Origin: Actinomycetota bacterium
GTDB lineage: Bacteria; Actinomycetota; UBA4738; HRBIN12
Direction: 5' to 3'
Length of the DNA: 64,000 nt
Assembly (NCBI GenBank): GCA_036745475.1
Contig: DAIOFZ010000001.1
Location: 1,211 to 65,210, forward strand
A model generated the notes under the pieces. It made no database searches and had not been told where the DNA came from. It saw only the letters and a list, made by a program, of their open reading frames with translations. Both the position numbers and the translations under genes were made by a program. Position 1 is the first letter of the stretch, and the number at the start of each line of letters is the position of its first letter. Of this stretch, positions 7,529 through 22,020 are shown piece by piece.

Positions 7529-8551
7529 TCACGCCTCGACCCGTTCCCCTGGTCGGACCCGACCCTCGCGCACCGAGGCGCCGGCGCCCACCACGGCCCC
7601 CTCGCCCAGCACGGAATCGCGGACCGAACCACCCCGCATCACCCTCGAGCCGGGACCGAGGATCGAGCGCTCCACGATCGTGTCGGGTTCGACCACCGCA
7701 CGCTCGTGCAGGACGGTGTCGCTCACCCGCGCCCCCGTCTCGATCCTGGCGCGACGCCCGACGACGACATGCTCGTTCACTGTCGCGCCGCGGTCGATCC
7801 GGCCGTCGCCGTCGACGTACGGCGACGGGTACGAGCGGTGGCCGTCCACCCGGCCGTCGAGCAGGTCGAACTGCGCCTGCAGGTACGCCTGCGGCGTCCC
7901 GAGATCCATCCAGTACGCCTCGGAAGGGAACCCCGCGAGGGGTCGACCTGCGGCGATGAGCGACGGGAAGATCTGGCGCTCGATCGAGACGTTCTCGCCG
8001 GGGGTCCAGCCCTCGAGCGCGACGGGGTCCAGGACGTAGGTACCCGCGTTGATGTCGCCCGGCACGAGCTCCGAGGGCTTCTCGCGGAACTCGAGCACCC
8101 GCCCGTCGGCGTCCAACGGCACGAGGCCGTACGGCCGAGCGTCCTCGACGTGCGTGAGCGCGATCGTCGCCACCGCGCCCCGATCGCGGTGCCTCGCAAG
8201 CATCTCGGTGAGGTCCAGGTCGGTGAGGATGTCGCCGTTGACCGCGAAGAAGGGGTCGTCCGTGCCGATGGCTCCGAGCGCGTTCACGATCGCGCCGCCC
8301 GTGCCGAGCGGCTCGGTCTCGGTGATCCAGGTGATCGACGGGTCGCCGCCCCGAGCCTGGATGAACGTGTGAAAGGTCCCCTCCAGGTACGAGCTGGACA
8401 GCACGACCTCGTGCACGCCGTGGCCCGCCAGGTGGTCGAGCACGTGGTCGAGGCTCGGCCGGTCCAGGAGCGGGATGAGCGGCTTGGGGAGGGTTTCGGT
8501 GATCGGGCGCAGGCGTGTGCCCTCACCGCCGACGAGCACGACGGCCTTCAT
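7529..8551 (-). CDS. mannose-1-phosphate guanylyltransferase (GDP-mannose pyrophosphorylase; NDP-sugar pyrophosphorylase with C-terminal left-handed beta-helix)
   Basis: The N-terminal nucleotidyltransferase signature is MKAVVLVGGEGTRLRPITETLPKPLIP. The C-terminus has hexapeptide repeats. The gene sits in a polysaccharide locus only 4 nt downstream of the preceding gene. Confidence 0.8.
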   Translation of the reverse strand: MKAVVLVGGEGTRLRPITETLPKPLIPLLDRPSLDHVLDHLAGHGVHEVVLSSSYLEGTFHTFIQARGGDPSITWITETEPLGTGGAIVNALGAIGTDDPFFAVNGDILTDLDLTEMLARHRDRGAVATIALTHVEDARPYGLVPLDADGRVLEFREKPSELVPGDINAGTYVLDPVALEGWTPGENVSIERQIFPSLIAAGRPLAGFPSEAYWMDLGTPQAYLQAQFDLLDGRVDGHRSYPSPYVDGDGRIDRGATVNEHVVVGRRARIETGARVSDTVLHERAVVEPDTIVERSILGPGSRVMRGGSVRDSVLGEGAVVGAGASVREGRVRPGERVEA

Positions 8552-8555
8552 CGGG

Positions 8556-8933
8556 TCACGTGTGTTGGGTCTGCGAGACGAGGATGATGCCTACGCCGAT
8601 GAACGCGACCCCCGCCCAACGCAGCGGCGGCACCGTCTCGTCCAGCACGAACTGGTCGAAGAGCAGGATCAGCACGTACGTGAGCGCGGCGAACGGGTAG
8701 GCGAACGAGAGCGAGGCCCTCGACAGCACCACCAGCCAGACGAGGGCGGACAGGCCGAACAGGAACAGCCCGGCCCAGACGAACGGCTGGCCGACGACCT
8801 CCCGCAGCGAGGGACCGTTCAGCGAGAAGGTCTGCGGCGCGAGCTCGTCGTTCACGAGGTTCATGCCGTGCTTGAGCGCCAGCTGCGCGACCGCGGCCAG
8901 CGTGACGGAGAACAGGATCAGCGCGATCAACAT
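8556..8933 (-). CDS. ArnE/ArnF-like DMT-superfamily small membrane protein (putative polyprenyl-phosphate-sugar flippase subunit)
   Basis: 125 aa with 4 TM helices. The motifs VAQLALKHG and FAYPFAALTYVLILLF...PLRWAGVAFIGVGIILV resemble the ArnE/F / EamA half-transporter. The start is an ATG inside a longer R-rich ORF, and AAAGGGA lies upstream. Confidence 0.65.
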   Translation of the reverse strand: MLIALILFSVTLAAVAQLALKHGMNLVNDELAPQTFSLNGPSLREVVGQPFVWAGLFLFGLSALVWLVVLSRASLSFAYPFAALTYVLILLFDQFVLDETVPPLRWAGVAFIGVGIILVSQTQHT

Positions 8934-8983
8934 CGGAGGGATCCCTTTCGTCTGGGTGGTGACCGGGTCGGTCTTGGGTTCGG

Positions 8984-10165
8984 TCACACGTCCTCGACCT
9001 CCACGGCCACCGGAACCTGGACGCGCTCCTGCACGCGGGGCGCGTCGACGACCTCGAACAGGTAGCGCTGGGTCTGCACGTGGTACAGGTGCCCCGTGGC
9101 GCGGTTCGACAACCCGACCGTCACCCAGTACTTCCCGGGCTCGTACGGGAACGCCTCGATCCGGAAACGCACCCGCTTCTTCTCGAACCGCCCGAGATCC
9201 AGACCGGCGCGCGAGGTGCCAGCGTCGAGGACCGCATGGTTGGTGGCCCCGTCCAAGACCGCGAAGTCCACGTCCAGCTCGTCGAGCGGCTCGTGCTGGC
9301 GGACGTCGATCACGATCGTGAGCGGGTCGCCGCGCAGGATCGCGCCCTCGCTCGACCCGTTCGGGCGGACGATCTGGACCTCGGCGATCTCCGCCTCCCG
9401 TGTGCCCTCCTCGGGGACGAAGTTCGGATCGGTCACTCCGAGGAGGACGTAGCGCATCTCGCGCACGACGTCGGCCGGCATGCCGATCGCGTGCAGCTCG
9501 CCGTGGTGGAGCATCGCCGCCCGGTCGCAGATCTCGATCACGGTGTCGAGCGCGTGCGTCACGAGCACGATCGTGCGTCCTTCGCGCTGGAACGCCCGGA
9601 CGCGGTCGAGGCACTTGGCCTGGAAGGCCTCGTCGCCGACCGCGAGGACCTCGTCGATCAGCAAGACGTCGGGCTCGACGTGCACCGCCACCGCGAACCC
9701 GAGCCGGACCAGCATGCCCGACGAGTAGAACTTCACCTCGTTGTCGATGAAGTCCTCGAGCTCGGCGAACGCGACGATGTCGTCGAACGCGGCGTCGGTC
9801 TGCCGGCGAGACAAGCCGAGGAACGAGGCGTTCAGGTAGACGTTCTCGCGCCCCGTGAGCTCGGGGTGGAAACCCGCGCCGAGCTCGAGCAGCGCCGCGA
9901 GCCGCCCGCGCTGGCGGATCGTCCCCGAGGTCGGCCGCAGGATCCCGGCGACGCACTTCAGCAGCGTCGTCTTGCCGGAGCCGTTGTGCCCGATCAGCCC
10001 GAACGTCCCCCCCTGGCGCACGTCGAGCGCGACGTCCCGGAGCGCCCAGAAGTCCTCGGCTCGGCTCCGCGACGAGAGCACACGCTGCTTGAGCGACGTC
10101 GGCCTGTCCCGGTAGATGCGGAAGCGCTTCGAGACATCGGCGACCTCGATCGCGGAGGCGTTCAC
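8984..10165 (-). CDS. polysaccharide/teichoic-acid ABC exporter ATP-binding protein (Wzt/TagH-like) with C-terminal carbohydrate-binding domain
   Basis: The Walker A is GHNGSGKTTLLK, the signature is YSSGMLVRLGF, and the Walker B is LLIDEVLAVGDE. An extra C-terminal beta-sandwich-like domain of about 150 aa follows. The start is GTG at 10165, overlapping the Wzm stop (GTGA), with a GGAGGAG SD upstream. The longer track ORF (to 10909) is an R-rich extension that overlaps the permease gene. Confidence 0.85.
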   Translation of the reverse strand: MNASAIEVADVSKRFRIYRDRPTSLKQRVLSSRSRAEDFWALRDVALDVRQGGTFGLIGHNGSGKTTLLKCVAGILRPTSGTIRQRGRLAALLELGAGFHPELTGRENVYLNASFLGLSRRQTDAAFDDIVAFAELEDFIDNEVKFYSSGMLVRLGFAVAVHVEPDVLLIDEVLAVGDEAFQAKCLDRVRAFQREGRTIVLVTHALDTVIEICDRAAMLHHGELHAIGMPADVVREMRYVLLGVTDPNFVPEEGTREAEIAEVQIVRPNGSSEGAILRGDPLTIVIDVRQHEPLDELDVDFAVLDGATNHAVLDAGTSRAGLDLGRFEKKRVRFRIEAFPYEPGKYWVTVGLSNRATGHLYHVQTQRYLFEVVDAPRVQERVQVPVAVEVEDV

Positions 10166-11067
10166 AGCTCCTCCGCGAAGTCGCCCGAACGGTTGAAGAA
10201 GTAGCCCCACGCGAGGCGAAGCCCGACGAGCGAGACGACGAGCGTGATCGTCAGGACCCCGGCGACCCAGCCCAGGCTCCCGTCGAACAGGACCGGCTCC
10301 TGGGCCGCGACCGGCTGCACGAAGACGTAGAGCGCTCTGTGGAAGCCGGCCACGACGTCGACCATGGGGTTCAGCATGTAGAACGCCAGCCGCGGGATCC
10401 CGAACCAGGTCCCGCGCTGGGCGAGGTCTTGCACCTGGAATTCTGCGTAGACGATCGGGGTCGCCCAGAACCACACCAGCAGCGCGATGTTCAGCAGGTG
10501 CCCGACGTCGCGGTAGCGCACGTTCAGCGCCGAGAACCACAGCGACAGGGTCACCGTGAGCACCAGGAGCGTCACGAACGCGAGCGGCCACAGCGCGAGC
10601 TCGGGCAGATGCAGGCCGTAGCCCGACACGATCACGTAGAGGAGCAACACCGCCGATTGCAGCGCGAAGTCGACGAGGCCGACGCCGACGGCCGAGAGCG
10701 GCAGGATCTCGCGCGCGAACGCCACCTTCCTCACGAGGTTCGCGTTGTCGAGCACCGCCCGCGCGCCGCTGCCCATCGAGGCCGAGAACAGGTTCCAGGC
10801 GAGCAGTCCGGATAGCAGGTAGACCGGGTAGTTCGCGATCCCGGCCCCCAGGACCTTCGCCACGAACGAGAAGACCGCGAGGTAGACGAGCGGGTTCAGC
10901 AGCGACCACACGGCACCGAGCACCGAGGCCGCGTACTTGACCTTGAGCTCCTTGCGGACCAGGTTCGCCAGGATCTCGCGGTGGGCGGCCAGGATGCGGA
11001 GGCGTTCGCCCACCCGAAGGTGCGGCGACTCGGAGGTGCGCTCGACGGTCTCCGTGGTTGTTGCCAT
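10162..11067 (-). CDS. ABC-2 type polysaccharide exporter permease (Wzm/TagG-like)
   Basis: 301 aa with 6 TM helices and the ABC-2 motif region ...LNPLVYLAVFSFVAKVLG...FYMLNPMVDVV. The start is ATG at 11067 (MATTTETVERT). Upstream of it the frame is low-complexity. Confidence 0.8.
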   Translation of the reverse strand: MATTTETVERTSESPHLRVGERLRILAAHREILANLVRKELKVKYAASVLGAVWSLLNPLVYLAVFSFVAKVLGAGIANYPVYLLSGLLAWNLFSASMGSGARAVLDNANLVRKVAFAREILPLSAVGVGLVDFALQSAVLLLYVIVSGYGLHLPELALWPLAFVTLLVLTVTLSLWFSALNVRYRDVGHLLNIALLVWFWATPIVYAEFQVQDLAQRGTWFGIPRLAFYMLNPMVDVVAGFHRALYVFVQPVAAQEPVLFDGSLGWVAGVLTITLVVSLVGLRLAWGYFFNRSGDFAEEL

Positions 11068-11225
11068 GGGTGTGGGCGGCTCGTGGCCGGTCGGCTCGCG
11101 GTCGGCTCGCGCCGCGCGTGCCAGCCTGCGTGGCGAGTCTAGCAACGGCCCCCGCGCCACCCGTGGAGAATGCACGGAATCGTCACGGGTCCGCAGGGGG
11201 CTGGAGCAGGCGATCCTGCCGCTCC

Positions 11226-12608
11226 CTAGGGCTCCGCGACCGGAGGTCCGTGAGCGGCGCTCGACGCGGACGGTCGGAACTCGTCGAGCGCTCGGGCGTA
11301 GGCCATGCCGTAGCCCTCCGAGAGCCCCTCCTCGGTGATCCCGAGGTCCACCAGGGCACCGCCCCACCGGGCGAGCGCGCGCCGGGCCGGGTCCCACAGG
11401 AGGGCCATCGTGGCGTCCATCGCCTCCGCGTACACGTGGGCGGTCGTCTCGGACCGGGCGAGCCGCTCCATGCGCTCACGTGCGGCGTCGCCGATCCGGC
11501 GGCGGCGTCCGGGATCGTCCACCAGCGTTCGGAGCGCCTCGGCCAGCTCGCGAGGTTCGAGCCGCCCGGCCGGCACGGAGACGACGACGTCCTCGGGGAG
11601 GTCGAGGTAGGTCCCGGTCCCGCTGACGACCGTGGGGCGCCCGCATTGCATCGAGCGCGAGAGCGCCCCGGAAACCTCCCCCCGGTGCGGGAACCGGAGG
11701 TCCACGGCGACGTCCGCGGCGCACATCCACGCCAGGAAGTCCTCGTCCGAGACGTCGGTGTGCAGCGACGCGCGCGCCCCCAAACCGCTCGCACGCACCA
11801 GCGGCTCCGTGTCGTACCCTGGGATCCGGCGGCCGACGAGCGCGAGGTGGACGTCCTGGGGCAGGTGCACCATCGCCTCGAGGACGACGTCGATCAGCTT
11901 GGCGGCGTTCTGGTCACCGAACACCCCGATCAGCGTGCGCATCCCCATGGACTCGAGCGAACCGCGGATCACGCGCGCGCGTCCCTCGGCCCTGCGGACG
12001 TCATGTGCCTTCTCGATGACCGGATGCGGCACGACGTAGACCGGGGTCTTGCAGCCGAACGCGCGAAGATAGCGTTCGACGAAGGGTGAGTGGACGACGA
12101 TCCCCCGCGCGTTCCGGGCGGCGTGCGCGATGGTGGGGACGCGGAGCGGCTCGTTGCGTTCGGCCTCCTCGAACCCGTGGAGGCGCGGCGCGAGCAGCAG
12201 GCCTTCGCGCAACGCCTGGTGCCCGAACGGCTGCGCCGTGGCCACCATCCCCATCACGAAGTCGTCGAGCGCGAGGTCGTGGATCACCAGGAGCCCCGGC
12301 GTTCGGATCGCGAGGTCGTAGATGTCGCCGTGGAACTCCAGGTTGTTGCCGAGGTGGTAGACGGCCATCGTGTGCCACGGCACCGTCGCCCAGTGCTTGT
12401 GCTTGATCGGCCAGTACGGCTGGATCTTGTGCTTGCCCGGGGTGTAGCCGATCCGCTCGAGCCCCTCGAGCACCGCCTGCGAGTAGGTCGCGATCCCGCT
12501 GCGGGCCGGCGGCATCGGCGAGAGCCACGCGACCCGCGGGTCCATCCGATGGTCCCAGCGGTAGAGCCTGCGGGCCGCGCCGACGATCGGGGTGGTCACT
12601 CGGTTCAC
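11226..12608 (-). CDS. glycosyltransferase family 1 (GT4-type)
   Basis: The GT-B fold has the EX7E-like C-terminal region (CGRPTVVSGTGTYLDLPEDVVV). The N-terminus WLSPMPPARSGIATYS is typical of GT4. An alternative start is at MDPRV (12545). Confidence 0.75.
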   Translation of the reverse strand: MNRVTTPIVGAARRLYRWDHRMDPRVAWLSPMPPARSGIATYSQAVLEGLERIGYTPGKHKIQPYWPIKHKHWATVPWHTMAVYHLGNNLEFHGDIYDLAIRTPGLLVIHDLALDDFVMGMVATAQPFGHQALREGLLLAPRLHGFEEAERNEPLRVPTIAHAARNARGIVVHSPFVERYLRAFGCKTPVYVVPHPVIEKAHDVRRAEGRARVIRGSLESMGMRTLIGVFGDQNAAKLIDVVLEAMVHLPQDVHLALVGRRIPGYDTEPLVRASGLGARASLHTDVSDEDFLAWMCAADVAVDLRFPHRGEVSGALSRSMQCGRPTVVSGTGTYLDLPEDVVVSVPAGRLEPRELAEALRTLVDDPGRRRRIGDAARERMERLARSETTAHVYAEAMDATMALLWDPARRALARWGGALVDLGITEEGLSEGYGMAYARALDEFRPSASSAAHGPPVAEP

Positions 12609-12610
12609 GG

Positions 12611-13660
12611 CTACCCCGTCAGCCGCGCGACGACGTCGGGCCAGCCCGGGACCGTCGCGCGCAGCTTCTCGTTGCCGGCCTCGCCCATCTTCTTCGCGAG
12701 CGGGCGGTTCGAGAACAGGCGGTCGAACGCGTGGGCGATCGCCTGCGGTTCGGGCGGGGTGACCAGTCCCGTCTCACCGTCGGTCACGAACTCCAGCGGT
12801 CCACCCGCGTCGGTGAGCGTGACGACGGGCCGGTGCGCGGCGAACCCCTCGAGCGTCACGTACCCGTAGTCCTCGTCGAACGGCCCGTAGTACACGCCGA
12901 GCGCTCCGAGGTAGAGCTCGTGGAGGCGTTCGTCCGAGACGCGACCGGCGAGCTCGACCTTGCCCTGGAGCCCGTGCTTCTCGATCTGCTCACGGAGGCC
13001 GTCCCCGTCGGGACCGTTGCCGACGAGCACCAGCCGAACCCCGGTCCTCACGTGCCGCATCGCCTCGACGACGAGCGCCTGACGCTTGAGTCCTTCGAGC
13101 CGGCTGGGGAACACGATCGCATCACCGTACGGTCCGGGTTCGAGCGGCAGGAGCGCCTCGACGATCGGCGACGGGTGATACAAGACGTCGCTCGACAGCC
13201 GGAGCGAGCTCCAGAGGCGGTCCTGCACGTTCTTCGAGTTCGTGAAGATTCGCTTGGCCTCCCCGAGCGCGATCCGGTCGCTCTGCTGCACCATGTCGCG
13301 CACCTGCGGCCCCTCGATCTGCTTGCCGAGGTCGGCGAACTCCGGGTGATCCCAGAGCTCGTACGCGGTCCGGTGCTGGTGGATCAGCCACACCACCTTG
13401 CGTTCGTGAGGGACGAGGTACGCGGGGAACTTCAGCGCGATCACGATGTCGATCGGCAGCCCGTTGGATTCGGACAGGTCGAGGGCGCGCCACACCGCCA
13501 TCTGGTGCACGATCTCGGTCGCCGGGTACCACTTGCCGGCGACCACCACCTCCTCGGCGTCGTGCCCCGCCTCGCGGAGAGCGGCGACGACCGACTCGGT
13601 GTGCGTCTCGGCTCCCCCGCGCACGAACGGCGTCTGGGGGTGGGCGACCGCGATCCTCAC
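12611..13660 (-). CDS. glycosyltransferase family 1 (GT4-type)
   Basis: The N-terminus VRIAVAHPQTPFVRGGAETH is typical of GT4. The C-terminus has GYVTLEGFAAHRPVV. The start is GTG at 13660 with a GGGGAGG SD, overlapping the upstream ORF stop (GTGA). The track ORF extends with R-rich sequence to 13969. Confidence 0.75.
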   Translation of the reverse strand: MRIAVAHPQTPFVRGGAETHTESVVAALREAGHDAEEVVVAGKWYPATEIVHQMAVWRALDLSESNGLPIDIVIALKFPAYLVPHERKVVWLIHQHRTAYELWDHPEFADLGKQIEGPQVRDMVQQSDRIALGEAKRIFTNSKNVQDRLWSSLRLSSDVLYHPSPIVEALLPLEPGPYGDAIVFPSRLEGLKRQALVVEAMRHVRTGVRLVLVGNGPDGDGLREQIEKHGLQGKVELAGRVSDERLHELYLGALGVYYGPFDEDYGYVTLEGFAAHRPVVTLTDAGGPLEFVTDGETGLVTPPEPQAIAHAFDRLFSNRPLAKKMGEAGNEKLRATVPGWPDVVARLTG

Positions 13661-14016
13661 TCGGCCTCCCCGAGCTTCGAACGCAGCTCCTTCACCTCGG
13701 TCTCGAGCGCGACGACCCGGTCGGCGAGCGCGGCGGCGAGCTCGCCGAACTCGGCCAGCAGCCGGTCGTTGCGGCGGCGCATGGGTCGCAGGAGCCGGAA
13801 CTGGAGGACCTTGGCCTTCCGCCGCGTACGCGAGCCGGACCCGAGCTCGGGCTCGCCTCGTGGGACGGCCTGCTTCTCGTCGGCTCGCATGAGCATCGCG
13901 AAGTCGTGCAGCAGATCGCGCACCTCGGACGTGTCCATCCGAGACCGAGCCGAGGCGTCCTCGGCCCAATAGATCTCGCGTTCGAGCGCGCTGCGAGCAT
14001 CGTTCTCGCTGGTCAC
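13657..14016 (-). CDS. small coiled-coil protein (about 119 aa), translationally coupled to the downstream glycosyltransferase
   Basis: The C-terminal heptad-like segment is RNDRLLAEFGELAAALADRVVALETEVKELRSKLGEAE. Its stop overlaps the GT4 start. No clear SD is present and the start is unclear (GTG at 14016), so this call is tentative. Confidence 0.35.
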   Translation of the reverse strand: MTSENDARSALEREIYWAEDASARSRMDTSEVRDLLHDFAMLMRADEKQAVPRGEPELGSGSRTRRKAKVLQFRLLRPMRRRNDRLLAEFGELAAALADRVVALETEVKELRSKLGEAE

Positions 14017-14087
14017 GGGCGTGAGGGTAGCACCGGCTCGGATGTCATCAGCCCGATCACCGCCCGCTCGGAAAGCTCGGGCGAGGC

Positions 14088-14393
14088 CTACTTCTCCCGG
14101 GTGACCTCGAAATGCCTCACCGTCGGTTCGAACTCGAGGAGGAAGCGCGCGTCTTCCGGGTAGTAGTGAGCAGCCTCCACGTCGTCGCCGGCGAACGCCC
14201 TCACGTCGTCGAGGGAGTCCCAGAGGGACATCACGCCGAACTCGGCCTCGTCGCCGTCGAGCCGGCGCAGCACCATCACCCCACGGTTGCCAGCTGTGGC
14301 GTGGAGTTCTACTACCCCGCTCTGCTCCAGGTACGCCAGGTACCCGTCGTAGTCCTCGGCCTTCGTGCGTCCGAACCATAGCCGTGCGATCAC
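14088..14393 (-). CDS. ABM/Dabb-like dimeric alpha+beta barrel protein (101 aa)
   Basis: A strong SD (GAAGGAGG) lies 6 nt upstream of the GTG start. The size and pattern (…VMVLRRLDGDEAEFGVMSLWDSLDDVRAF…) fit small ABM-fold proteins. Confidence 0.55.
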   Translation of the reverse strand: MIARLWFGRTKAEDYDGYLAYLEQSGVVELHATAGNRGVMVLRRLDGDEAEFGVMSLWDSLDDVRAFAGDDVEAAHYYPEDARFLLEFEPTVRHFEVTREK

Positions 14394-14436
14394 GGTCGGC
14401 CTCCTTCGCTCGAGCTACGACCAGTATCGTTCGGCC

Positions 14437-15268: not shown

Positions 15269-16627
15269 CTAGTCGTTCGGCGCCCAGATCGGGCCCAGGC
15301 AGTCGTCACGGAGCGGCAGCGGGTTCGGCTCCCTCGGCCGTTGCTCGAAATCGAACGCCGAGAGCATCGGCGTCGCCTGCTTGTCCCGCTTGGTGAGCTG
15401 CGTCAGGTCCCAGTTGTCCTCGATGAACCGGAGCACGCTGGAGAACTCGCCGAGCTCGCCGCTCACCTTGCCCTGCTTCGCGTACGGGCTGAGCACGATC
15501 ATCGGCACGCGGATCCCGAACCCGAAGTCGTCGACCTGCGGCGGCGGCACGTGATCGTAGAAGCCGCCGTAGTCGTCCCACGTGAGGAAGATCGCGGTCG
15601 AGTCCCACATCGGTGAGCGCATGATCGCGTCGATCACCTTCGTCGACCAGTTCTCGCCGTGGCAGAAGTTGTACTCGGGGTGCTCGGACAGCTCGAACCT
15701 CGGCGTGATCCACGTGATCGGCGGGAGCAGCCCTTGGCGGATGTCCTTCACCACCTCGTCGGCCGGAAACATGTGCCTCTGCCACCGGTCCTCGTGCATC
15801 CGGTAGCGGCGGATCGCCGAGTACGCCGACCAGATGTAGCCCTTCTGGTCCTCGCTCGCCGCGTAGTAGGCCCACGGGATCCGCGCGCCGTTCAGCAGGT
15901 CGCCCTCGGTCAGGAAGTCGAAGCACGGGGGCACCTTCTTCATCCGCCCCTCGCTGTCGTAGACCTCGACGGTCTGCAGCGGCGGCGCGTCGCAGCCGAA
16001 CGTGTTCGAGCCGTGGGTGAGGCTCGGCGTTCGCCGCGGGTTGTCGTGCGCCCCGCCGGAGGTGGCCGCGATCGAGTACAGGTGGTTCGGGAACGAGGGA
16101 CCCTGCGCGCTCGCGAAGAAGTTATCGAACAGCACGTTCTGCCGCGCCCAGTGCCAGTAGTTCGGCAGCTGGTCCTTGTGGAGCTGCGTGTAGGCCCACG
16201 GGGCGTGGTCGCCCTGCAGGAACCCGTCCATCTCCCCCTTGTCCCAGGCCGCGAGCGCGCACGTGTAGCAGTGCGGCAGGTCGCCGGGCACACGGCCGTC
16301 GGTCCCGCGCGTCAGCGTTCGGGGCTGCCCGAACGCCATCCCGGTCGAGACGCCGTTGGCGTCCGGGAACATGCCGAAGAGGTGATCGAACGATCGGTTC
16401 TCCTTGATCAGGAACACGACGTGCTTGATCGGGGTCGCGGTCTCGAGCGCGGTCGCGTCGAACGCGTCGGGGCTCCCGGCGGTGCTCACGCTCGGACTTG
16501 GTGACGCGGGCGGTGAGCTCGTCGCCCGTGGCTCGGCCCCGCTCGCGGTGCACGCGGCGGCGATCAGGGCCAGGCCCAGGACGGAGGCGACCCACGAGAG
16601 CACGCGCCGATGCAGGGGGGTCCGCAT
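15269..16627 (-). CDS. phosphoesterase-family protein (phospholipase C / acid phosphatase family), secreted lipoprotein
   Basis: A signal peptide with a Cys is present ([10 protein letters not shown]). The conserved phosphoesterase motifs are present ([17 protein letters not shown] ... [12 protein letters not shown] ... [12 protein letters not shown]). Confidence 0.8.
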
Positions 16628-16639: not shown

Positions 16640-17809
16640 CTATCCAGGGCCGGCCGGGCGGCCGGCGGCCCGCCGGAGCACCTCGGCCGTCGCACCGGCC
16701 GCCCGCTCCCACGAGAACATCGCGAGACGCTCGCGGCCGGCGGCGACCAGCCGGTCGCGCAGGCCGGCGTCGCCGAACAGCCGGACGAGACCCTCCCCGA
16801 TCGCGTCGACGTCGTTCGGGTCGACCAACAGCGCGGCGTCGCCGGCGACCTCGGGCAACGAGGCCGCGGACGAGGTCAGCACCGGGACACCTGCCGAGAA
16901 CCCCTCGAGCACTGGGAACCCGAACCCCTCGTACCGCGACGGGTATGCGAGCACCGTCGCGCCGGCCAGCAATGCACGCTTCTCCTCGTCCGATACGTAG
17001 CCGGTGAGCACGACCCGCCGTCGGATGTCCTTCGGGAGCGCGGCGACCTGCGCGCGGAGGGTCTCGGTGCCCTGGGGTGCCCAGGACGTCCGACCGCCGG
17101 CGATCACGAGCCACCGATCCGCGTCGCCCACGCGCGCGAACCCCTCGACGAGCGCGCCGAGGTTCTTCCGCGGCTCGATCCCGCCGACGAACAGCGCGAA
17201 CGGCCCACCGATCCCGAAACGAGCGCGCACGCGTTCGGCCTCCACCGGCGCGGGCGCCTCGAACGGGTCCGCCCCGTGGGGGATCACGTGCACGCGGCCC
17301 TCGTCGAGCCGGTGGCGTCGGAGCACGTCGGCCTTAGCGCTCGCCGACGGCACGATCACCCCGGCGCTGCGCCGCAGCCACCCGTCGAACCGCCGCCGCC
17401 ATCGCTCGCCGAACCCCGGGCCGACCTCGGGCATCACCTCGAACGCCAGGTCGTGGACGATCAGCACGACGGCGTCGCTGTGGGTCGGGGGCGGGAGGAA
17501 GTTCGTCGCGAGGAGCGCGTCGAAACGCACCATCCCCTCGAGCCTCGGCAGCTCGAGACGCCGCCACACGGGTTCGAGGAGGCCGGGGATCCGCGACACG
17601 TGCTCGGTCAGGTTCGGCGCGCCCGGGAGGTCGGAGCCTCCGGGATGCGGGTGCCACGCCACCAGCTCGTCGGTCGGCATGGCCCCCGGCAGGTGCGACA
17701 GCATCCGCCGGGTGTAGTGGCCCACGCCGGTGGGTTCGGCATCGGAGGCGGGACGAGCGTCGATCGCGATCCGCACGCGGGCAGTATCGCCGCTCGCCGG
17801 GCGACGCAC
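16640..17809 (-). CDS. glycosyltransferase family 1 (GT4-type)
   Basis: The N-terminus VRIAIDARP... is typical of GT4. The C-terminal region is RYEGFGFPVLEGFSAGVPVLTS. The true start may be the internal GTG at 17776. Confidence 0.75.
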   Translation of the reverse strand: MRRPASGDTARVRIAIDARPASDAEPTGVGHYTRRMLSHLPGAMPTDELVAWHPHPGGSDLPGAPNLTEHVSRIPGLLEPVWRRLELPRLEGMVRFDALLATNFLPPPTHSDAVVLIVHDLAFEVMPEVGPGFGERWRRRFDGWLRRSAGVIVPSASAKADVLRRHRLDEGRVHVIPHGADPFEAPAPVEAERVRARFGIGGPFALFVGGIEPRKNLGALVEGFARVGDADRWLVIAGGRTSWAPQGTETLRAQVAALPKDIRRRVVLTGYVSDEEKRALLAGATVLAYPSRYEGFGFPVLEGFSAGVPVLTSSAASLPEVAGDAALLVDPNDVDAIGEGLVRLFGDAGLRDRLVAAGRERLAMFSWERAAGATAEVLRRAAGRPAGPG

Positions 17810-17847: not shown

Positions 17848-18564
17848 GTGGACCGGATCAAGTATTCGGTCATGACGCGACTCGCTCCCTACCCCTCGCT
17901 GGCAGTGCCGCTGGCTCGGTTGCGCGGCGAAGGCGAACTGGTCGACTCGCGGACTGACCTCCTCGTCGAGTCCTACCCGCGATGCGCGTCGTCGTTCGCG
18001 ATCGCGGCATTCCGCCTCGCGCAGGAGCCGAGGAGCCTGCGCGTCGCGCATCACACGCACGCGTCGGGGCACGTGATCGCCGGGATCCGTTTGGGGATCC
18101 CGGCGCTGGCCTTGATCCGCGAGCCCGAGAGCGCGGTGGTGAGCAGCCGCATCCGCCATCCCGCGCGCACGTACGCGGACCTGCTCCGGGGGTTCTGCGC
18201 CTTCTACGAGCCGCTCGTGCCCCATCGCGGCGACCTGGTGGTCGGGACGTTCGACGAGGTGATCGGCGGCGAGCTCGGTGCGATCACACGGCGGCTGAAC
18301 GCGCGCTTCGGCTCCACGTACGCCGAGTTCGAGCCGACTGAGGACAACGTCGCACGCGTGATGCGCGAGATCGACCAGGACTGGCGGACGCGGCGAGGCG
18401 AGGGCGAGCGGCTCGAGCGCGTCATCCCACGGCCCTCCCGTGTTCGTGAGGGTCTGAAGTCGGAGATGCGGGAGCGGTACGCCGCCGAGGCGCCGCAGAA
18501 GCTCCGGCAGCGCGCGGAAGAGCTGTACTCGTGGTTCACGCGCAGCGAGGACGCGGGATCGTGA
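17848..18564 (+). CDS. hypothetical protein, possibly a sulfotransferase-family protein
   Basis: YPRCASSFA resembles a degenerate 5'-PSB loop (PKSGTT). LIREPESAVVSS resembles the sulfotransferase 3'-PB motif (RDPRDvavS). It is embedded in the glycopolymer locus, and its stop overlaps the tagA start (GTGA). Confidence 0.4.
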   Translation: MDRIKYSVMTRLAPYPSLAVPLARLRGEGELVDSRTDLLVESYPRCASSFAIAAFRLAQEPRSLRVAHHTHASGHVIAGIRLGIPALALIREPESAVVSSRIRHPARTYADLLRGFCAFYEPLVPHRGDLVVGTFDEVIGGELGAITRRLNARFGSTYAEFEPTEDNVARVMREIDQDWRTRRGEGERLERVIPRPSRVREGLKSEMRERYAAEAPQKLRQRAEELYSWFTRSEDAGS

Positions 18565-19313
18565 ACTCGGTCATCTTCGGCGTTCGGCTGGACGAGCTCG
18601 CGTCCGTCGAGAACCTCCGCGGCGTCGCGACCGGGTTCCTCGAGGGCGACCGCGCCTTCCGGATCTTCACGCCGAACCCCGAGATCCTCCTCCACGCCCG
18701 AGAGGATCCCGCCTATGCGGACCTCCTGCGGTCGGCCGACCTCGCGCTCCCCGATGGGACCGGCGTCGCGATCGTGCAAGCGCTGCGGAGCGGCCGCTCG
18801 GTCCGGCGCTGGCCGGGAGTGGAGATCGCCGCGATGGTGCTGGGCCTGGCCGCCGAGCGCGGCGACACCGTGGCGTTCGTCGGCGGCTCGCCCGACGTCG
18901 CCGAACGAGCGGCGGCGCGATGGCGCGCACTCCCGGGGCTGAAGGTCGTGGTCGCCGGCGCGGGCGTCGCGATCGACGAGGACGGCATCGCTCGCTCGAT
19001 GGAGCGCGAGGACGAGACCGTCGACGTGATCCGTTCGGCCGCGCCCACGATCGTCCTCGTCGGGCTCGGCGCTCCCAAGCAGGAGCGGTGGATCGAGCGC
19101 CACGCGGACACGTTCCCGTCGGTCCGCATCATGATCGGCGTCGGCGGCGCCTTCGACATGTGGGCGGGCTCCAGGCGCCGCGCGCCCCGCGCGTTCCGAA
19201 CGTTCGGGCTCGAATGGCTGTGGCGGTTGTCGCTCGAGCCTCGACGGCTCCCGCGGATCCTGCGGGCGACCGTCGCCTTCCCGGTTCTCGCCTTGTTCGA
19301 TCGGGCCCGCTGA
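18561..19313 (+). CDS. tagA: WecB/TagA/CpsF-family glycosyltransferase (GT26; N-acetylmannosaminyl/linkage-unit transferase)
   Basis: The family motifs are present (PDGTGVAIVQALRSG ... VGLGAPKQERWIERH ... GVGGAFDMWAGS). GTG at 18561 overlaps the upstream stop. Confidence 0.8.
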   Translation: MNSVIFGVRLDELASVENLRGVATGFLEGDRAFRIFTPNPEILLHAREDPAYADLLRSADLALPDGTGVAIVQALRSGRSVRRWPGVEIAAMVLGLAAERGDTVAFVGGSPDVAERAAARWRALPGLKVVVAGAGVAIDEDGIARSMEREDETVDVIRSAAPTIVLVGLGAPKQERWIERHADTFPSVRIMIGVGGAFDMWAGSRRRAPRAFRTFGLEWLWRLSLEPRRLPRILRATVAFPVLALFDRAR

Positions 19314-20486
19314 GTGCGGGTCCTGTTCCTGACGCCGCGCCAGCTGGGCGAGCCACGCGGCGGCGGGACGATCAAGTCGGCGGCCGTCCTGTCGTACCTG
19401 GACGTCCGGCACGAGGTCGAGGTCGCATGCTTCCGCGGTCATGACGAACAGCCCTGGATGCGGGAGGGCGGCGTGGTCTCGATCCCCATGGAGCGGGACC
19501 GATCGGTTCGTCACCTCCTGTCGAGCTACGCCGCCGGCGTGCCGCTCAGCATCGAACGCAACCGAAGCTCGACGATGGCCGAGCACGTCGCCACGCTCCT
19601 CGAGCCCGGCGATCACGACGCCGTCTTCGTCGACGGCTGGCTGATGGCCCAGTACGTGCCCGAGGGGTTCGCGGGCATCCGCCTGCTCCACGAGCACAAC
19701 GCCGAGCACGTGATGTGGCGCCGGCACGCCGAGCTCGAGACCAACCCGGTCCGCAGGCCCCTGGTCCGGCTGGAGGCCCGGCGGGTCCGGCGGTACGAGG
19801 CGGGTCTGCTCGCGCGGTTCGACGTCGTGTTCGCGGTCTCCGAACAGGACCGGTCCACCCTCGCTGCCCTCGTCCCCCGTGGTCCCCAGATCGCCCTGCT
19901 CCCGAACGTCGCCGACCCCGCCCTGCTCGACCGCCCCGAGCTCACCCCACCACCCGAACCCGTGCTGCTCTTCCTCGCCACGCTCTCCTGGCCGCCCAAC
20001 ACCGACGGGCTCTCGCGGTTCCTCGGCGACGACTTCCCGGCGCTGCTCGATCGTGTGCCGGACGCCCGCCTCGTCGTGGCGGGGGCCGGGGCGCCGGAGC
20101 GGCTCGTGCGGCAGATCCATCGGAGCCGCGGTGCAGAGTTCGCGGGGCCGATCGAGGACGACGAGGCGCTGTACCGGCGGGCTCGATGCTTCGTCGACGT
20201 GGGCATCGGCGGTTCGGGGACCAAGGTCAAGGTGCTGAACGCGCTGGCGCGCGGCCTCCCCGTCGTGACCGGGCCCGACGGCGCGGCCGGGCTCGACGTA
20301 ACCTCGGGCGAGCACCTGCTGATCGCGGACGATCGCGAGGGGATGATCGCCTCGCTGGAGTTCGTGGTCCAGGAGGACGCCGCCTGGTCGAACCTCAGCC
20401 GCAACGGGCGGGACCTCGTCCGCGGCAAGTACGTGCCCGAGGTCGCGTTCGGCGCCCTGGACGACGCGCTGGCCCGGCGTTCGTAG
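19314..20486 (+). CDS. glycosyltransferase family 1 (GT4-type)
   Basis: MRVLFLTPRQLGEPRGGG opens a typical GT4 N-domain. The C-terminal region is VGIGGSGTKVKVLNALARGLPVV. GTG lies directly after the tagA stop. Confidence 0.75.
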   Translation: MRVLFLTPRQLGEPRGGGTIKSAAVLSYLDVRHEVEVACFRGHDEQPWMREGGVVSIPMERDRSVRHLLSSYAAGVPLSIERNRSSTMAEHVATLLEPGDHDAVFVDGWLMAQYVPEGFAGIRLLHEHNAEHVMWRRHAELETNPVRRPLVRLEARRVRRYEAGLLARFDVVFAVSEQDRSTLAALVPRGPQIALLPNVADPALLDRPELTPPPEPVLLFLATLSWPPNTDGLSRFLGDDFPALLDRVPDARLVVAGAGAPERLVRQIHRSRGAEFAGPIEDDEALYRRARCFVDVGIGGSGTKVKVLNALARGLPVVTGPDGAAGLDVTSGEHLLIADDREGMIASLEFVVQEDAAWSNLSRNGRDLVRGKYVPEVAFGALDDALARRS

Positions 20487-20586
20487 ATCGACCTATCGTG
20501 CGGGCGTTTCCATCGGGGCGCGCGGAGCTTCGGCCACTGCGGTCAGCACGTTCGTGGCCCAGCGCCGACCCTCGAGCCGCTCGGCG

Positions 20587-22020
20587 CTAGGTCGGGCACT
20601 CCACGGGCTCGTCGGTGCTCGGCGGCGGGATCTCGTAGCGCCCGCCGACGACGACCGCCACGTCCTGCCCTTTCGCGAGCGTCCCCGGTGGCGCCGGGAC
20701 GAGCCCCAGATTGCCGAAGTAGGTGCCGACGACCTTCGCCATCGGCTCGGCGCCCCGTGCGTACAGGATCATCGAGCCCTTGGTCGGCGGCCGGATCTTG
20801 GTGAGATCGACCACGCCCGGCGACGTGTTGAAGCCACCCTCGGTCAGGATGTCGAACACGTCCGTCGCGACCGGACTCCCGTCGCGATCGACGACCGAGA
20901 CCACGATGTTGGCCGGCGAAGGCGGCGTCTGCGCCAGCTCCTGGCCGAGGTCCCCGAGCGGCCGGCCTTCGCGGATCCTGCGCACGAGCTCGTCGGCGTC
21001 GGGCTGCACGGCCCGCACGATGGAGACGAACGTGCCGCTCGAGTCGTAGATCCCCTCGGGCACCGTGGGCAGCGCGCGAAAGTCCGCGTTGTCGGTCCCT
21101 ACGCCTTGGAGCAGGCCCGCCAGGTAGACGAGCTCGGCAGGGTTCAGGCCGTCATCCACGACGAGGTTCCCGAGCAGGTCGGGGACGAGCTGTTGCAGGT
21201 GGAGCAGCTCACCCGGCTGCAACAGCTTCGCGATCACCGCGCGCAGGAACTGCTGCTGCCGGCTGATCCGGGCGAAGTCCGGCACGGTGTCGCACGGCTG
21301 ATGCCGGGTCCGGACGTACGCCAGCGCCGTCGGCCCGTCGAAGTGCTGACATCCGGCTGGGATGTCGAGCAGCGAGAGCTCATCGACCATCGGGTACGGC
21401 ACGCACATGTCGACGCCGCCGAGGGCGTCGACGACCCGCTGGAACCCGAGCAGGTTGACGTACAGGACGTGGTGGATCTGCATCCCGGTGATGCTCTTCA
21501 CGGTTCGAGCCACTCGTTGCGGACCACCGCCGTCGATGCCCCCCTCGAACGCGGAGTTGATCTTGCCCTCGCCCATCCCCGGGATGTCGACCCACAGATC
21601 TCGTGGGAAGGAGAGGAAGATCGCCTCCTTCCGGTCGGGGCGCGTGTGGACGAGGATGATCGTGTCCGAGCGGTTCTCTCCGCCGATGTGCGCGTTGGTG
21701 CCGAACGCGATGATCTCCTCTCGCGTCAGGCCCTTGCGGGAGTCGCTCCCGAGCAGCAGGTAGTTGCACGCGTGCTCGTCGCACCTGCCCGCGACGTCCG
21801 CGGGGCCCGTGGCGCCGGGCGTCGACGGGAGCGGGGGGATGTAGTGGATCTGCTTGCTCGTCCAGATGTAGGAGCCCATGACGAGCGCGGCGACCACGGT
21901 GACGAAGGCGGACACGGTCGCGGTCCCGGCCAGGAACACCCGTCGGACGTGCGGATGCGCGCGGGACGCCTTCGGGTCTTGGGCGTCCTCCGTCGGCGTC
22001 GTCGGGTTCGTCGAGGTCAT
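20587..22020 (-). CDS. LCP-family (LytR-CpsA-Psr) cell-wall glycopolymer phosphotransferase with C-terminal LytR_C domain
   Basis: There is an N-terminal TM helix. The LCP core motifs are present (RSDTIILVHTRPDRKEAIFLSFPRDLWVDIPGMGEGKINSAF ... QHFDGPTALAYVRTRH). A C-terminal extension follows. Confidence 0.85.
   Translation of the reverse strand: MTSTNPTTPTEDAQDPKASRAHPHVRRVFLAGTATVSAFVTVVAALVMGSYIWTSKQIHYIPPLPSTPGATGPADVAGRCDEHACNYLLLGSDSRKGLTREEIIAFGTNAHIGGENRSDTIILVHTRPDRKEAIFLSFPRDLWVDIPGMGEGKINSAFEGGIDGGGPQRVARTVKSITGMQIHHVLYVNLLGFQRVVDALGGVDMCVPYPMVDELSLLDIPAGCQHFDGPTALAYVRTRHQPCDTVPDFARISRQQQFLRAVIAKLLQPGELLHLQQLVPDLLGNLVVDDGLNPAELVYLAGLLQGVGTDNADFRALPTVPEGIYDSSGTFVSIVRAVQPDADELVRRIREGRPLGDLGQELAQTPPSPANIVVSVVDRDGSPVATDVFDILTEGGFNTSPGVVDLTKIRPPTKGSMILYARGAEPMAKVVGTYFGNLGLVPAPPGTLAKGQDVAVVVGGRYEIPPPSTDEPVECPT

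Follow-up and report, generated by a model that had tools for sequence, protein, structure and literature searches.

Polysaccharides exported by ABC transporters whose Wzt subunit carries a carbohydrate-binding domain (CBD) are known from the polymannose system of E. coli O9a/O8 (K. pneumoniae O3/O5), which comprises ManB/C, the GT4 glycosyltransferases WbdA, WbdB and WbdC, the terminator WbdD and a Wzm/Wzt-CBD exporter. CBDs read the cap at the chain end (PMC9445017), and in known systems they accompany a polymerase-terminator mechanism (PMC9445017; PMC11231755). A coiled-coil protein bearing the terminator is a hallmark of CBD-dependent systems, and the membrane-proximal end of WbdD recruits the polymerase (PMC11231755). 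In the polymerase-terminator systems of K. pneumoniae O4, O7 and O12 (ORF7-O4, ORF6-O7 and WbbB), the coiled-coil, terminator and polymerase glycosyltransferase modules reside on one or several polypeptides (PMC11231755). The closest solved homologue of the transporter described here, over both nucleotide-binding domain (NBD) and CBD, is the WzmWzt of Aquifex aeolicus (7K2T, 8DKU, 6O14, 8DKY), whose CBD binds a 3-O-methyl sugar (PMC9445017).

Two wall-linked systems are also relevant. The galactan exporter of M. tuberculosis is a Wzm/Wzt pair (Rv3783/Rv3781), and the Rv3261-Rv3267 region of that organism carries fbiA, fbiB, manB, wbbL1, rmlD and lcp1. The wall teichoic acid pathway relies on TagO, TagA, TagGH and an LCP enzyme.

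A conserved locus for a cell-wall polysaccharide

The window analysed here, a stretch of 64,000 nucleotides from an uncultured soil actinobacterium, contains a real and conserved cluster that makes and exports a cell-wall polysaccharide, delimited by the ManB stop (7529) and the LCP start (22020). In view of a G+C content of about 70% in the window, open reading frames were called with a GC3 frame plot and then scanned against Pfam and NCBIfam; related MAGs, gene-called independently, show an identical gene set. The genes are the following.

7529..8551, minus strand: A, ManB-like mannose-1-phosphate guanylyltransferase, GDP-mannose supply (Pfam NTP_transferase, E=9e-44, and LbH)
8556..8933, minus strand: B, small four-TM ArnE/ArnF-like (SMR/EamA-type) membrane protein (NCBIfam ArnF and ArnE, both below cut-off)
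8984..10165, minus strand: C, Wzt ATPase, 393 aa, with C-terminal CBD (Pfam ABC_tran and Wzt_C)
10162..11067, minus strand: D, Wzm ABC-2 permease (Pfam ABC2_membrane, E=9e-14)
11226..12608, minus strand: E, divergent GT4, candidate polymerase partner (Glyco_trans_1_4 and Glycos_transf_1, E about 1e-6 to 4e-8)
12611..13660, minus strand: F, highly conserved GT4 (Pfam Glycos_transf_1, E=4e-27)
13657..14016, minus strand: G2, coiled-coil protein of an unannotated family, 119 aa (frame plot, start GTG 14016)
14088..14393, minus strand: G, 101-aa ORF, possibly ABM-like (ABM E=0.05, 14 bits, sub-threshold)
14365..15192, plus strand: H, class I SAM methyltransferase (Pfam Methyltransf_11)
15269..16627, minus strand: I, PLC/AcpA-family phosphoesterase, predicted extracytoplasmic lipoprotein (PF04185, 221 bits)
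16640..17809, minus strand: J, GT4, MSMEG_0565-like, upstream of I (Pfam Glycos_transf_1, E=2e-27)
17848..18564, plus strand: K, sulfotransferase-fold protein of an unannotated family, 238 aa (AF2 model, Foldseek, motifs)
18561..19313, plus strand: L, TagA/WecG (GT26) ManNAc-type linkage-unit transferase (Glyco_tran_WecG, 159 bits, start GTG 18561)
19314..20486, plus strand: M, GT4, stp1-like (Pfam Glyco_trans_1_4, E=9e-17)
20587..22020, minus strand: N, LCP-family glycopolymer-peptidoglycan ligase (LytR_cpsA_psr, 138.6 bits)

The first-pass annotation had read the region as a wall-glycopolymer locus that depends on an ABC transporter and includes TagA and LCP. This reading is supported, and both genes were recovered in the Pfam and NCBIfam scans (L against TIGR00696, 137 bits, above the cut-off of 69; N against TIGR00350, 130 bits, above cut-off). 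The gene content that it listed is present, except that four GT4 genes (E, F, J and M) are counted in 7529-22020 rather than five, the fifth of the window lying far off at 55781-57466, and that the ORF read as a small ABM protein exists but matches ABM below cut-off. As that annotation had also stated, WecA/TagO (PF00953) is absent among the approximately 55 ORFs scanned across the window.

Several NCBIfam matches fall below model cut-offs, namely those of A to man1P_GTase_Rv (291 bits, cut-off 440), B to ArnF (53.8 bits, cut-off 99) and ArnE (45.3 bits), with a weak EamA match in Pfam, D to galactan_ABC_perm (60 bits), J to TIGR04047 (113 bits) and M to TIGR03087 (125 bits). The start of B (ATG 8933) is preceded by a GAAAGGGA ribosome-binding site, and gene calls in relatives give B as 125 aa; for D, the frame plot and the length of 295-301 aa in relatives place the start at the ATG that opens MATTTE. 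The signal peptide of I is of the lipoprotein type, with LIAAAC. The top PDB match of E is the GT4 protein 6KIH, and the PDB matches of F include, at weak similarity, the mannosyltransferases WbaZ-1 and PimA.

Conservation was assessed in 80 related genome loci anchored on Wzt, with 10-kb flanks examined. The core order G2, GT4 F, GT4 E, Wzm, Wzt-CBD, ArnE/F-like small protein, ManB is found in 46 of them, and the G2-F-E-Wzm-Wzt synteny persists at Wzt identities as low as 58%. A and B are each kept in 68 of the 80 loci, B always with Wzt as its neighbour; E occurs in 52 loci (45-91% identity), orthologues of F are 64-97% identical, and J and I accompany 39 and 23 of the 46 core loci, respectively. 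ManB is the sole conserved nucleotide-sugar gene and the GT4s weakly resemble mannosyltransferases, and for these reasons the exported polysaccharide is probably mannose-rich, a sugar composition that we infer from gene content.

The locus occupies the conserved actinobacterial fbiA-fbiB ... manB ... lcp position. As in M. tuberculosis, fbiA and fbiB lie upstream, followed by ManB and LCP, and A is syntenic with manB (Rv3264c), beside fbiA/fbiB. Further likenesses are ABC export of a wall-linked polysaccharide, the presence of the NCBIfam galactan Wzt/Wzm among the best models, under cut-off, and, in more distant loci, WbbL-like GT2 and RmlA-D genes. In contrast with M. tuberculosis, TagA stands in place of WbbL, a Wzm/Wzt-GT4-G2 module lies inside the fbiAB-manB-lcp site, and Wzt carries a CBD, which the mycobacterial protein (263 aa, PDB 9QFX) lacks. 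The TagA-type GT26 and the LCP ligase recall the wall teichoic acid pathway, and a TagH-like NBD is among the best NCBIfam matches, under cut-off; unlike that pathway, however, the window has GT4s and ManB but no TagB/TagF-type CDP-glycerol or ribitol phosphotransferases, and TagH has no Wzt_C domain. The GDP-mannose supply gene, the several GT4s, the Wzm/Wzt with C-terminal CBD and the coiled-coil protein encoded with the polymerase are all shared with O9a/O8, whereas the polymer is presumably attached to peptidoglycan through TagA and LCP, and not to lipid A-core.

The first-pass annotation had noted a beta-sandwich-like extension of about 150 aa on Wzt and had called for its comparison with solved Wzt-C structures. 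The extension spans residues 246-393 (8984-9430) and scores 52.5 bits against Wzt_C (Pfam cut-off 30.4). Wzt residues 6-354 align with full-length Aquifex Wzt (7K2T/8DKU, E=5e-68), and the CBD profile matches the solved CBDs of Aquifex (6O14/8DKY, E=4e-16) and Raoultella (5HNO, E=1.2e-3). To judge by these matches, this is a genuine Wzt_C CBD, and it is present in all 46 core loci.

G2 and its fusion relatives

The small coiled-coil ORF reported in the first-pass annotation is real. G2 is found in all 47 loci (of 80) with an F orthologue, always directly upstream, and in none without F, and because of this pattern it appears to be a constant component of the glycan machinery. The gap between the G2 and F HSPs is 0-78 nt in 45 of the 46 core loci, the single outlier (1233 nt) being probably a mis-chosen second G2-like match; in the window, the GTG start of F at 13660 overlaps the G2 stop as GTGA, and F is translationally coupled to G2. 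The family has 317 stand-alone homologues, and neither these nor G2 matched any Pfam family; 61 aligned sequences, 39-73% identical, share 25 invariant columns. The AF2 model of G2 (pLDDT 81) is all-helical (helices 2-20, 29-48 and 63-118), and its residues 60-85 are basic and amphipathic, with a net charge of +7 to +9; a Foldseek search with it returned no significant structural neighbour (best E=0.16). About 30 of the 56 residues of the C-terminal helix follow a heptad pattern, corresponding to some four heptads, which is far shorter than known rulers and speaks against the coiled-coil ruler proposed initially.

A profile search with G2 matched 128 representative clusters, at least nine of which (297-403 aa; E=1e-11 to 1e-15) end in a Methyltransf_23 domain. 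In genome loci, these fusion genes lie in the G2 slot; each is one ORF, located at about 4.9-6.1 kb in L037, L038, L065 and L069, and at 1864-2958, the equivalent position, in L034, and the loci mapped in detail show the order PLC, fusion, G2, F. The same succession of fusion, G2 and F is seen on metagenome contig L161; on L162 and L163, which have no separate G2, the fusion gene directly adjoins the F orthologue or overlaps it. From N- to C-terminus, the fusions comprise a helical domain, a basic amphipathic helix, a coiled coil that varies in length, and a methyltransferase. Among named relatives of this methyltransferase domain, sugar methyltransferases such as TcaB9 come closest (E about 1e-7); its top PDB match of all is 3DLI, an uncharacterised methyltransferase (E=4e-19). 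G2 founds a new, unannotated family that is homologous to the N-terminal module of these coiled-coil-methyltransferase fusions, and the window holds only the version without a catalytic domain.

This layout resembles what would be expected of a WbdD-like chain terminator. On the one hand, relatives of the window join a coiled coil to a class I methyltransferase, as in O9a/O8 (PMC11231755), and they do so in the G2 slot, in translational coupling with the same GT4 (F); a WbdD-like terminator logic therefore exists in this system. On the other hand, the order is inverted, with the membrane-proximal module N-terminal and the methyltransferase C-terminal, the fused methyltransferase has no sequence similarity to WbdD, and G2 itself, with its four heptads, has no catalytic domain. 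The commonest form of G2 likewise bears no terminator domain, unlike the coiled-coil polypeptides of K. pneumoniae O4, O7 and O12, and no fused domain in the window encodes terminating chemistry. The best overall explanation, to which we assign a probability of roughly 0.55, is that this is the main locus for an ABC-exported wall polysaccharide and that G2 acts as a scaffold of its polymerase machinery.

Candidate terminators and alternative roles

The first-pass annotation had instead paired H with G2 as a split WbdD-like terminator and ruler, in which H would methylate the chain end and the CBD would read the cap. H starts 349 bp upstream of the G2 start codon (14016 to 14365), divergently and with G between them, and stays beside the G2 operon in one subclade (L002, L003, L006, L007, L010, L014, L017, L089 and L110). 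In L166 a divergent GT4-GT4-K-TagA-GT4 operon opens with an orthologue of H (59% identity), and a glycan role for H is therefore possible; the fusions in relatives and the 3-O-methyl ligand of the Aquifex CBD also speak for the split terminator. H is, however, present in only seven of the 46 core loci, and the other 39 have a CBD all the same. It aligns with the fused methyltransferase domain over only 42 aa around the SAM motif and belongs to a different subfamily; no WbdD is found among its PDB matches. Homologues 60-67% identical to it sit in housekeeping surroundings (DnaE, Mfd, NDK/MreB and the like) that lack glycan genes, and the spacer that holds H carries unrelated insertions in relatives. 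Between the window and L010 the CBD is 95% identical but H only 61%, and the Aquifex methyl-cap residues N313, H350 and W362 correspond to G316, S353 and V363 in the window, where the trap loop is also two residues shorter. The intervening G, found in six of the 80 loci, all closest relatives and paired with H, is accessory, and the G+H pair occurs without glycan genes in L093-L095. Most probably, H is accessory to the system or unrelated to it, and is not the terminator; a split terminator is an unlikely reading of the locus.

Alternatively, K might cap the chain end with sulfate, much as O9a chains are capped with phosphate or methyl-phosphate, and G2 would then be the scaffold. The description of K as sulfotransferase-like agrees with its confident AF2 model (pLDDT 86, pTM 0.85), for which the top 50 Foldseek matches are all PAPS sulfotransferases (E=1.5e-4), and with invariant residues among its 295 homologues (P44, R45, S48/S49 and R91-x7-S99) that fit PAPS-binding motifs. 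K is translationally coupled to TagA through a GTGA overlap, the K-TagA-M unit is conserved in relatives, and L014 has three tandem K paralogues between GT4 E and Wzm. Against a capping role, K was detected in only six of the 80 loci within 10-kb flanks and accompanies TagA, not Wzt-CBD or G2, the TM-scores are modest (0.38-0.45), Pfam and NCBIfam scans returned no family, the window has no PAPS-synthesis genes, and sulfation could equally occur inside the chain or on the linkage unit. K is hence better regarded as a candidate glycan-modifying enzyme, and terminal sulfation by it as improbable.

The CBD, in turn, could read no chemical cap, binding an unmodified sugar, either the terminal one or one of the repeat, or only dimerising, with chain length set kinetically. 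In most loci, the window included, a CBD occurs with no terminator recognisable within 10 kb, and the Aquifex pocket residues are replaced across the whole G2-containing clade, H350 and W362 being retained in distant loci without G2, E and F. Nevertheless, a cap accompanies the CBD in every studied system (PMC9445017; PMC11231755), coiled-coil-methyltransferases occupy the G2 slot in some relatives, and the domain is conserved, though evolving faster than the NBD, all of which makes a cap-free CBD a long shot. Either the terminator is encoded elsewhere in the genome, or a GT4 terminates the chain, or the CBD needs no cap.

Lastly, G2 might stand outside the enzyme complex, as a basic-zipper DNA-binding regulator of the operon or as a functionless remnant of a coiled-coil-methyltransferase gene. 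A basic region directly before a leucine zipper is the bZIP layout, and three family members weakly match bZIP_2; strict adjacency to or coupling with GT4 F and the fusion of homologous modules to an enzyme, not to regulators, render such a role quite doubtful. The decaying remnant, suggested by the missing catalytic domain and structural neighbours and by a degenerate SAM motif in one fusion representative (P0406) that suggests a route of domain decay, is ruled out by the 25 invariant columns.

A proposed scaffold for the polymerase machinery

In the favoured model, with G2 as a scaffold, undecaprenyl phosphate would be primed by a WecA/TagO encoded elsewhere, TagA (L) would add the second linkage sugar, and the GT4s M and J would build an adaptor. 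The GT4 pair E and F would then polymerise a mannose-rich chain from GDP-mannose supplied by ManB (A), the Wzt CBD would engage its non-reducing end, possibly through a cap whose existence and nature we infer, Wzm/Wzt would export it, and the LCP enzyme (N) would attach it to peptidoglycan. Our best guess for G2 is that the short zipper lets it oligomerise, that the basic amphipathic helix holds it at the membrane, and that it recruits the soluble GT4 polymerase or organises it. Functionally, G2 would then match the end of WbdD that lies near the membrane and recruits the polymerase.

Gene content and chromosomal site of the locus

With ~70% G+C in the window, raw ORF lists are useless, and genes were therefore called from third-position G+C and scanned with Pfam and NCBIfam. 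The gene list of the first-pass annotation was upheld by this analysis with minor corrections: the five GT4 genes it had placed in the locus (7529-22020) are reduced to four, and the ABM assignment of a small ORF falls below threshold (E=0.05). Its statement that the window encodes no WecA/TagO agrees with the ~55 ORFs scanned, none of which is such an enzyme.

Genes called in the wall-glycan locus
7529-8551, minus-strand operon: A, ManB-like (NF052502, 291 bits)
8556-8933, minus-strand operon: B, small four-TM ArnE/F-like protein (sub-cut-off ArnF/ArnE)
8984-10165, minus-strand operon: C, Wzt (ABC_tran, 75.5 bits, plus Wzt_C)
10162-11067, minus-strand operon: D, Wzm (ABC2_membrane, E=9e-14)
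11226-12608, minus-strand operon: E, GT4
12611-13660, minus-strand operon: F, GT4
13657-14016, minus-strand operon: G2, coiled-coil protein (start GTG 14016)
14088-14393, minus-strand operon: G, ABM-like (sub-threshold)
14365-15192, divergent from the minus-strand operon: H, methyltransferase (Methyltransf_11)
15269-16627, minus: I, PLC/AcpA-family lipoprotein, downstream of J
16640-17809, minus: J, GT4, upstream of I
17848-18564, plus: K, sulfotransferase fold
18561-19313, plus: L, TagA/WecG, GT26 (PF03808, 159.5 bits against a cut-off of 27.4; TIGR00696, 137 against 69)
19314-20486, plus: M, GT4
20587-22020, minus: N, LCP ligase (PF03816, 138.6 bits against 24.6; TIGR00350, 130 against 62)

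GTGA overlaps join G2 to F, Wzm to Wzt and K to TagA. For the ManB-like protein, NF052502 (Rv3264c-type mannose-1-phosphate guanylyltransferase) is the best model by far, at 291 bits against a cut-off of 440, and the site of the gene next to fbiAB fits the Rv3264c type. ORF B remains below the NCBIfam equivalog cut-offs (ArnF, 53.8 bits against 99; ArnE, 45.3 against 92); it has in common with the ArnE/ArnF undecaprenyl-phosphate-sugar flippase only a small four-TM SMR-like architecture, and is present in the window as a single gene instead of a pair. A further GT4, which may be the fifth of the first-pass annotation, lies 34 kb off the locus at 55781-57466 (+), adjoining a carboxyltransferase gene (Glycos_transf_1, E=6e-28; Glyco_transf_4, E=2e-18). 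Elsewhere in the window, a 1138-aa ORF at 32825-36241 (+) with good coding statistics belongs to no Pfam family and probably encodes a large uncharacterised coiled-coil protein, its sole match being weak and tropomyosin-like (E=0.0015, sub-cut-off); a NurA-domain nuclease at 41291-42523 (-) and a PD-(D/E)XK nuclease-family protein at 52590-54110 (-) bear no relation to the wall-glycan finding.

The closest proteins all come from uncultured soil Actinomycetota MAGs. Scanning species-representative genomes with Wzt yielded 80 loci (47-96% identity), against which all window proteins were compared by tblastn. The arrangement G2-F-E-Wzm-Wzt is common to 46 of them, down to 58% Wzt identity, and constitutes the core; the GT4 gene J (39/46) and the PLC-like gene (23/46) lie near it, with LCP also close by. 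B and ManB recur in 68 of the 80 loci. Directly downstream of ManB (5910-7457, minus strand), a secreted protein combining a SpoIID domain with an LGFP repeat is encoded; kept there in 61/80 loci, it may link peptidoglycan remodelling to the locus. In more distant loci B and ManB are separated by a WbbL-like GT2, and J and G2 by RmlA-D; the window and a few relatives have TagA instead. The stretch that separates the two conserved modules, which holds H in the window, is an insertion hot spot in related loci, either from the ABM ORF to G2 (L002, L003, L006) or from the PLC gene to H (L007, L010), and also in L017:2538-5354. Alternative terminators were sought there, and the inserts, named by eye, turned out to be unrelated genes: a ~750-aa AAA/TPR-type regulator, a DNA cytosine-methyltransferase-like ORF, a small membrane protein, and HPr-kinase-like and PqqD-like ORFs.

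Upstream of the locus, at 20-1898 (+), are fbiA (CofD) and fbiB (F420 ligase-nitroreductase). Together with the positions of ManB and LCP and the WbbL-like GT2 and Rml genes of relatives, they indicate that the site corresponds to a region of M. tuberculosis with the gene order fbiA-fbiB-manB-wbbL1-rmlD-lcp1, which in mycobacteria holds the arabinogalactan linker genes. The locus is the principal wall-polysaccharide locus of the lineage, and this identification, taken alone, is one in which we place high confidence. ManB is the sole nucleotide-sugar gene conserved throughout; this and the weak similarity of F to mannosyltransferases are the grounds on which the polymer might be mannose-rich. 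In the PDB the GT4 enzymes resemble other GT4 proteins only in a generic way (the weak matches include WbaZ-1 and PimA), which does not specify a donor.

G2, its methyltransferase fusions and methyltransferase H

G2 is tightly associated with F. It is present in all 47 loci with a true F orthologue, is never found without F and lies directly upstream of it. Among the 46 core loci the HSP gap between the two measures 0-78 nt in 45, and the remaining one (1233 nt) is probably a mis-chosen second G2-like match. The family comprises 317 stand-alone homologues. In 61 sequences that share 39-73% identity with window G2, 25 columns are invariant, and the family has LxRELYW, IPxGEPxL and W-R-R-x-x-K-x-x-x-F-R-x-x-R-P-x-x-R-R-Y-D-R-L motifs followed by heptads; it has no Pfam family, and nothing in Pfam or NCBIfam scores above threshold. 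In the AlphaFold model (pLDDT 81), the 119-aa protein is all-helical, a loop connecting two short helices to a third of 56 residues. Residues 60-85 are strongly basic and amphipathic (net charge +7 to +9, hydrophobic moment 0.4-0.64), a candidate membrane-binding helix in a protein that may recruit the polymerase. Foldseek returned no significant match for this model; what it did find were helical hairpins of a generic kind, with WXG100 proteins as the best (E=0.16).

A profile search of 1.84 billion representative proteins with the G2 family returned 128 clusters. The proteins are mostly 100-180 aa long; no fewer than nine representatives (297-403 aa) are fusions, in which the N-terminal 100-120 residues match G2 (E=1e-11 to 1e-15) and the C-terminal part is a class I methyltransferase (Methyltransf_23). 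In five related loci (L034, L037, L038, L065, L069) the fusion is a single ORF of ~330-350 aa just upstream of G2; the one mapped in full, L037, reads PLC-like gene, fusion, G2, F, E, Wzm, Wzt-CBD, where CBD denotes the carbohydrate-binding domain. Among the metagenome contigs, L162 and L163 have no separate G2, and their fusion gene directly adjoins or overlaps the F orthologue (61-68% identical); L161 reads PLC, acetyltransferase, fusion, G2, F. What is expected of a WbdD-like terminator is a coiled coil of variable length that separates a membrane-proximal module from a terminating enzyme at the far end (PMC11231755). The fusions, in which the basic motif and the methyltransferase domain are ~60-113 residues apart, have this layout, but in inverted order. 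The closest solved relatives of the fused domain are the uncharacterised methyltransferase 3DLI and TcaB9-type sugar methyltransferases, not WbdD.

G2 is a paralogue of the fusions that lacks the catalytic domain, and it occurs much more often than they do. A tblastn search of the window for the missing domain, whether as a separate gene or as a relic, gave no match. One metagenome representative of 292 aa (P0406) is a fusion whose SAM-binding motif has degenerated to GAEGSE, as against GCGxGE, and which has no Pfam methyltransferase match, suggesting one way in which the catalytic part may be lost by decay. G2 departs from the WbdD paradigm in its make-up: a single polypeptide unites the coiled coil of a WbdD-type terminator with the methyltransferase, kinase or GT domain that terminates the chain, whereas window G2 has no such domain, and a WbdD-type ruler spaces terminator from polymerase by an extended coiled coil, whereas the 3-4 heptad spacing of G2 is confined to residues ~86-115, inside the 56-residue helix.

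The first-pass annotation had combined H and the coiled-coil ORF into a possible split WbdD-like terminator and ruler, an idea that the distribution and affiliation of H speak against. H is a generic Methyltransf_11 enzyme by Pfam and belongs to a different subfamily from the fused methyltransferase domain, with which it aligns over just 42 residues at the SAM motif. No homology to WbdD was detected, there being no WbdD entry among the PDB matches of H or of the fused domain and no significant fold match for G2. Only 7 of the 46 core loci contain H, with the CBD kept in all, and CBD identity does not track H: between the window and L010 the CBDs are 95% identical and the H proteins 61%. A metagenome scan gave 493 H relatives and 42 retained contigs of >5 kb, of which just the seven with the closest relatives (67-100% identical, one matching the window itself at 99-100%) carry the locus. 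The remaining contigs (H 60-72% identical) have none of its glycan genes nearby, and on the four whose neighbours were scanned H adjoins housekeeping genes, such as those for DnaE, Mfd, NDK/MreB and a SIS-domain protein; L093-L095 hold an H-ABM pair without glycan genes. This comes close to the outcome that the annotation had itself named as telling against its proposal, a methyltransferase from an unrelated small-molecule family. On L166, however, the H orthologue is the first gene of a GT4-GT4-K-TagA-GT4 operon, and for this reason we retain the split terminator as an improbable, though not negligible, alternative.

A second alternative, about equally improbable, would have G2 act as a free-standing scaffold or ruler on which interchangeable terminators dock in trans, be it the coiled-coil-methyltransferase paralogue or, elsewhere, other enzymes such as K or H. 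The machine would then be modular, or "split," and the cap in the window would be of an undescribed kind, for instance a sulfate. The terminator resides on the coiled-coil protein in every system characterised so far (PMC11231755).

Sulfotransferase-fold protein K and the Wzt carbohydrate-binding domain

The "sulfotransferase-like" label of ORF K proved apt at the level of the fold. K has no Pfam or NCBIfam match at E<=0.01 and is not in a curated sulfotransferase family. Its confident AlphaFold model (pLDDT 86, pTM 0.85) finds PAPS sulfotransferases in all of the top 50 PDB neighbours returned by Foldseek (E=1.5e-4, probability 1.0), at modest TM values of 0.38-0.45. Among 295 homologues P44, R45, R91 and S99 are invariant and S48/S49 are at least 90% conserved; in our own reading, the putative motifs P-R-x-A-S-S and R-x7-S match the 5'-PSB (P-K/R-x-x-S/T-S/T) and 3'-PB (R-x7-S) of sulfotransferases. 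K, TagA and a GT4 form a conserved unit. In one related locus (L014:6401-8808), three tandem K paralogues, 40-46% identical to window K, lie between GT4 E and Wzm. That K should itself be a sulfate-capping terminator seems unlikely.

Wzt comprises an ABC nucleotide-binding domain followed by Wzt_C (PF14524; 52.5 bits against a cut-off of 30.4, residues 252-374), and its start overlaps the stop of the adjoining ABC-2 permease gene, Wzm. The C-terminal extension (residues ~246-393), likened in the first-pass annotation to Wzt-C binding domains, does resemble them at the sequence level. Residues 6-354 align to the full-length Aquifex aeolicus Wzt (7K2T/8DKU; E=5e-68), and a profile built from the CBDs of 38 relatives matches the isolated Aquifex CBD (6O14/8DKY; E=4e-16) and Raoultella terrigena Wzt-C (5HNO; E=1.2e-3), with E. 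coli O9a 2R5O not among its matches at E<=1. The homologues available for alignment were 85-97% identical and too alike to be useful, and CBD membership was settled by sequence and profile evidence.

In the Aquifex CBD, a 3-O-methyl sugar is held by N313, H350 and W362 (PMC9445017). These residues are not conserved in the window, where G316, S353 and V363 are found, and the trap loop is two residues shorter; position 362 is V, I or L in all loci of the G2-containing clade. The fold is thus conserved but the pocket is not, and the ligand cannot be inferred from it. A test for co-variation between CBD sequence and the presence of H or of the fusion gene found none. A CBD acting independently of any cap is an alternative that we consider unlikely. 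Only distant Wzt proteins from loci without G2, E and F keep H350 and W362 (L062-L078, e.g., L064, L068, L070, L074, L075; mostly Acidimicrobiia-type loci), and L074 and L077 also encode nearby a methyltransferase that shares 34% identity with the fused domain.

Proposed chain termination at an actinobacterial wall-polysaccharide locus

The best overall reading of the locus, to which we assign a probability of roughly 0.55, is that of a wall polysaccharide built by a polymerase-terminator system, exported by the ABC transporter and ligated by LCP. G2 would be a membrane-proximal scaffold organising the GT4 pair, a role for which we see about even odds, and the Wzt CBD would engage the chain end. 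In some relatives the paralogous coiled-coil-methyltransferase would terminate the chain; in the window the model assigns neither terminator nor cap to any gene. A regulatory G2, or a vestigial one for which the decayed fusion might offer a precedent, is not a likely explanation of a family so consistently paired with F.

No earlier account of coiled-coil-methyltransferase or Wzt-CBD systems from Actinobacteria turned up in the literature searched. What is understood of how a coiled-coil terminator and a cap-reading Wzt domain control chain length comes almost wholly from the O antigens of Gram-negative bacteria. The reading favoured here would extend that logic to a widespread, uncultured lineage of soil actinobacteria, at its core site for wall polysaccharide. 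The locus also cautions that a methyltransferase merely located in a glycan locus does not justify inferring a cap. Two unannotated families are revealed by the analysis: an "inverted" coiled-coil-methyltransferase with its far commoner enzyme-less paralogue, and a TagA-coupled protein of sulfotransferase fold. If G2 does organise the polymerase, the scaffold function of a WbdD-like protein would here be set apart from catalysis, and hence be separately testable.
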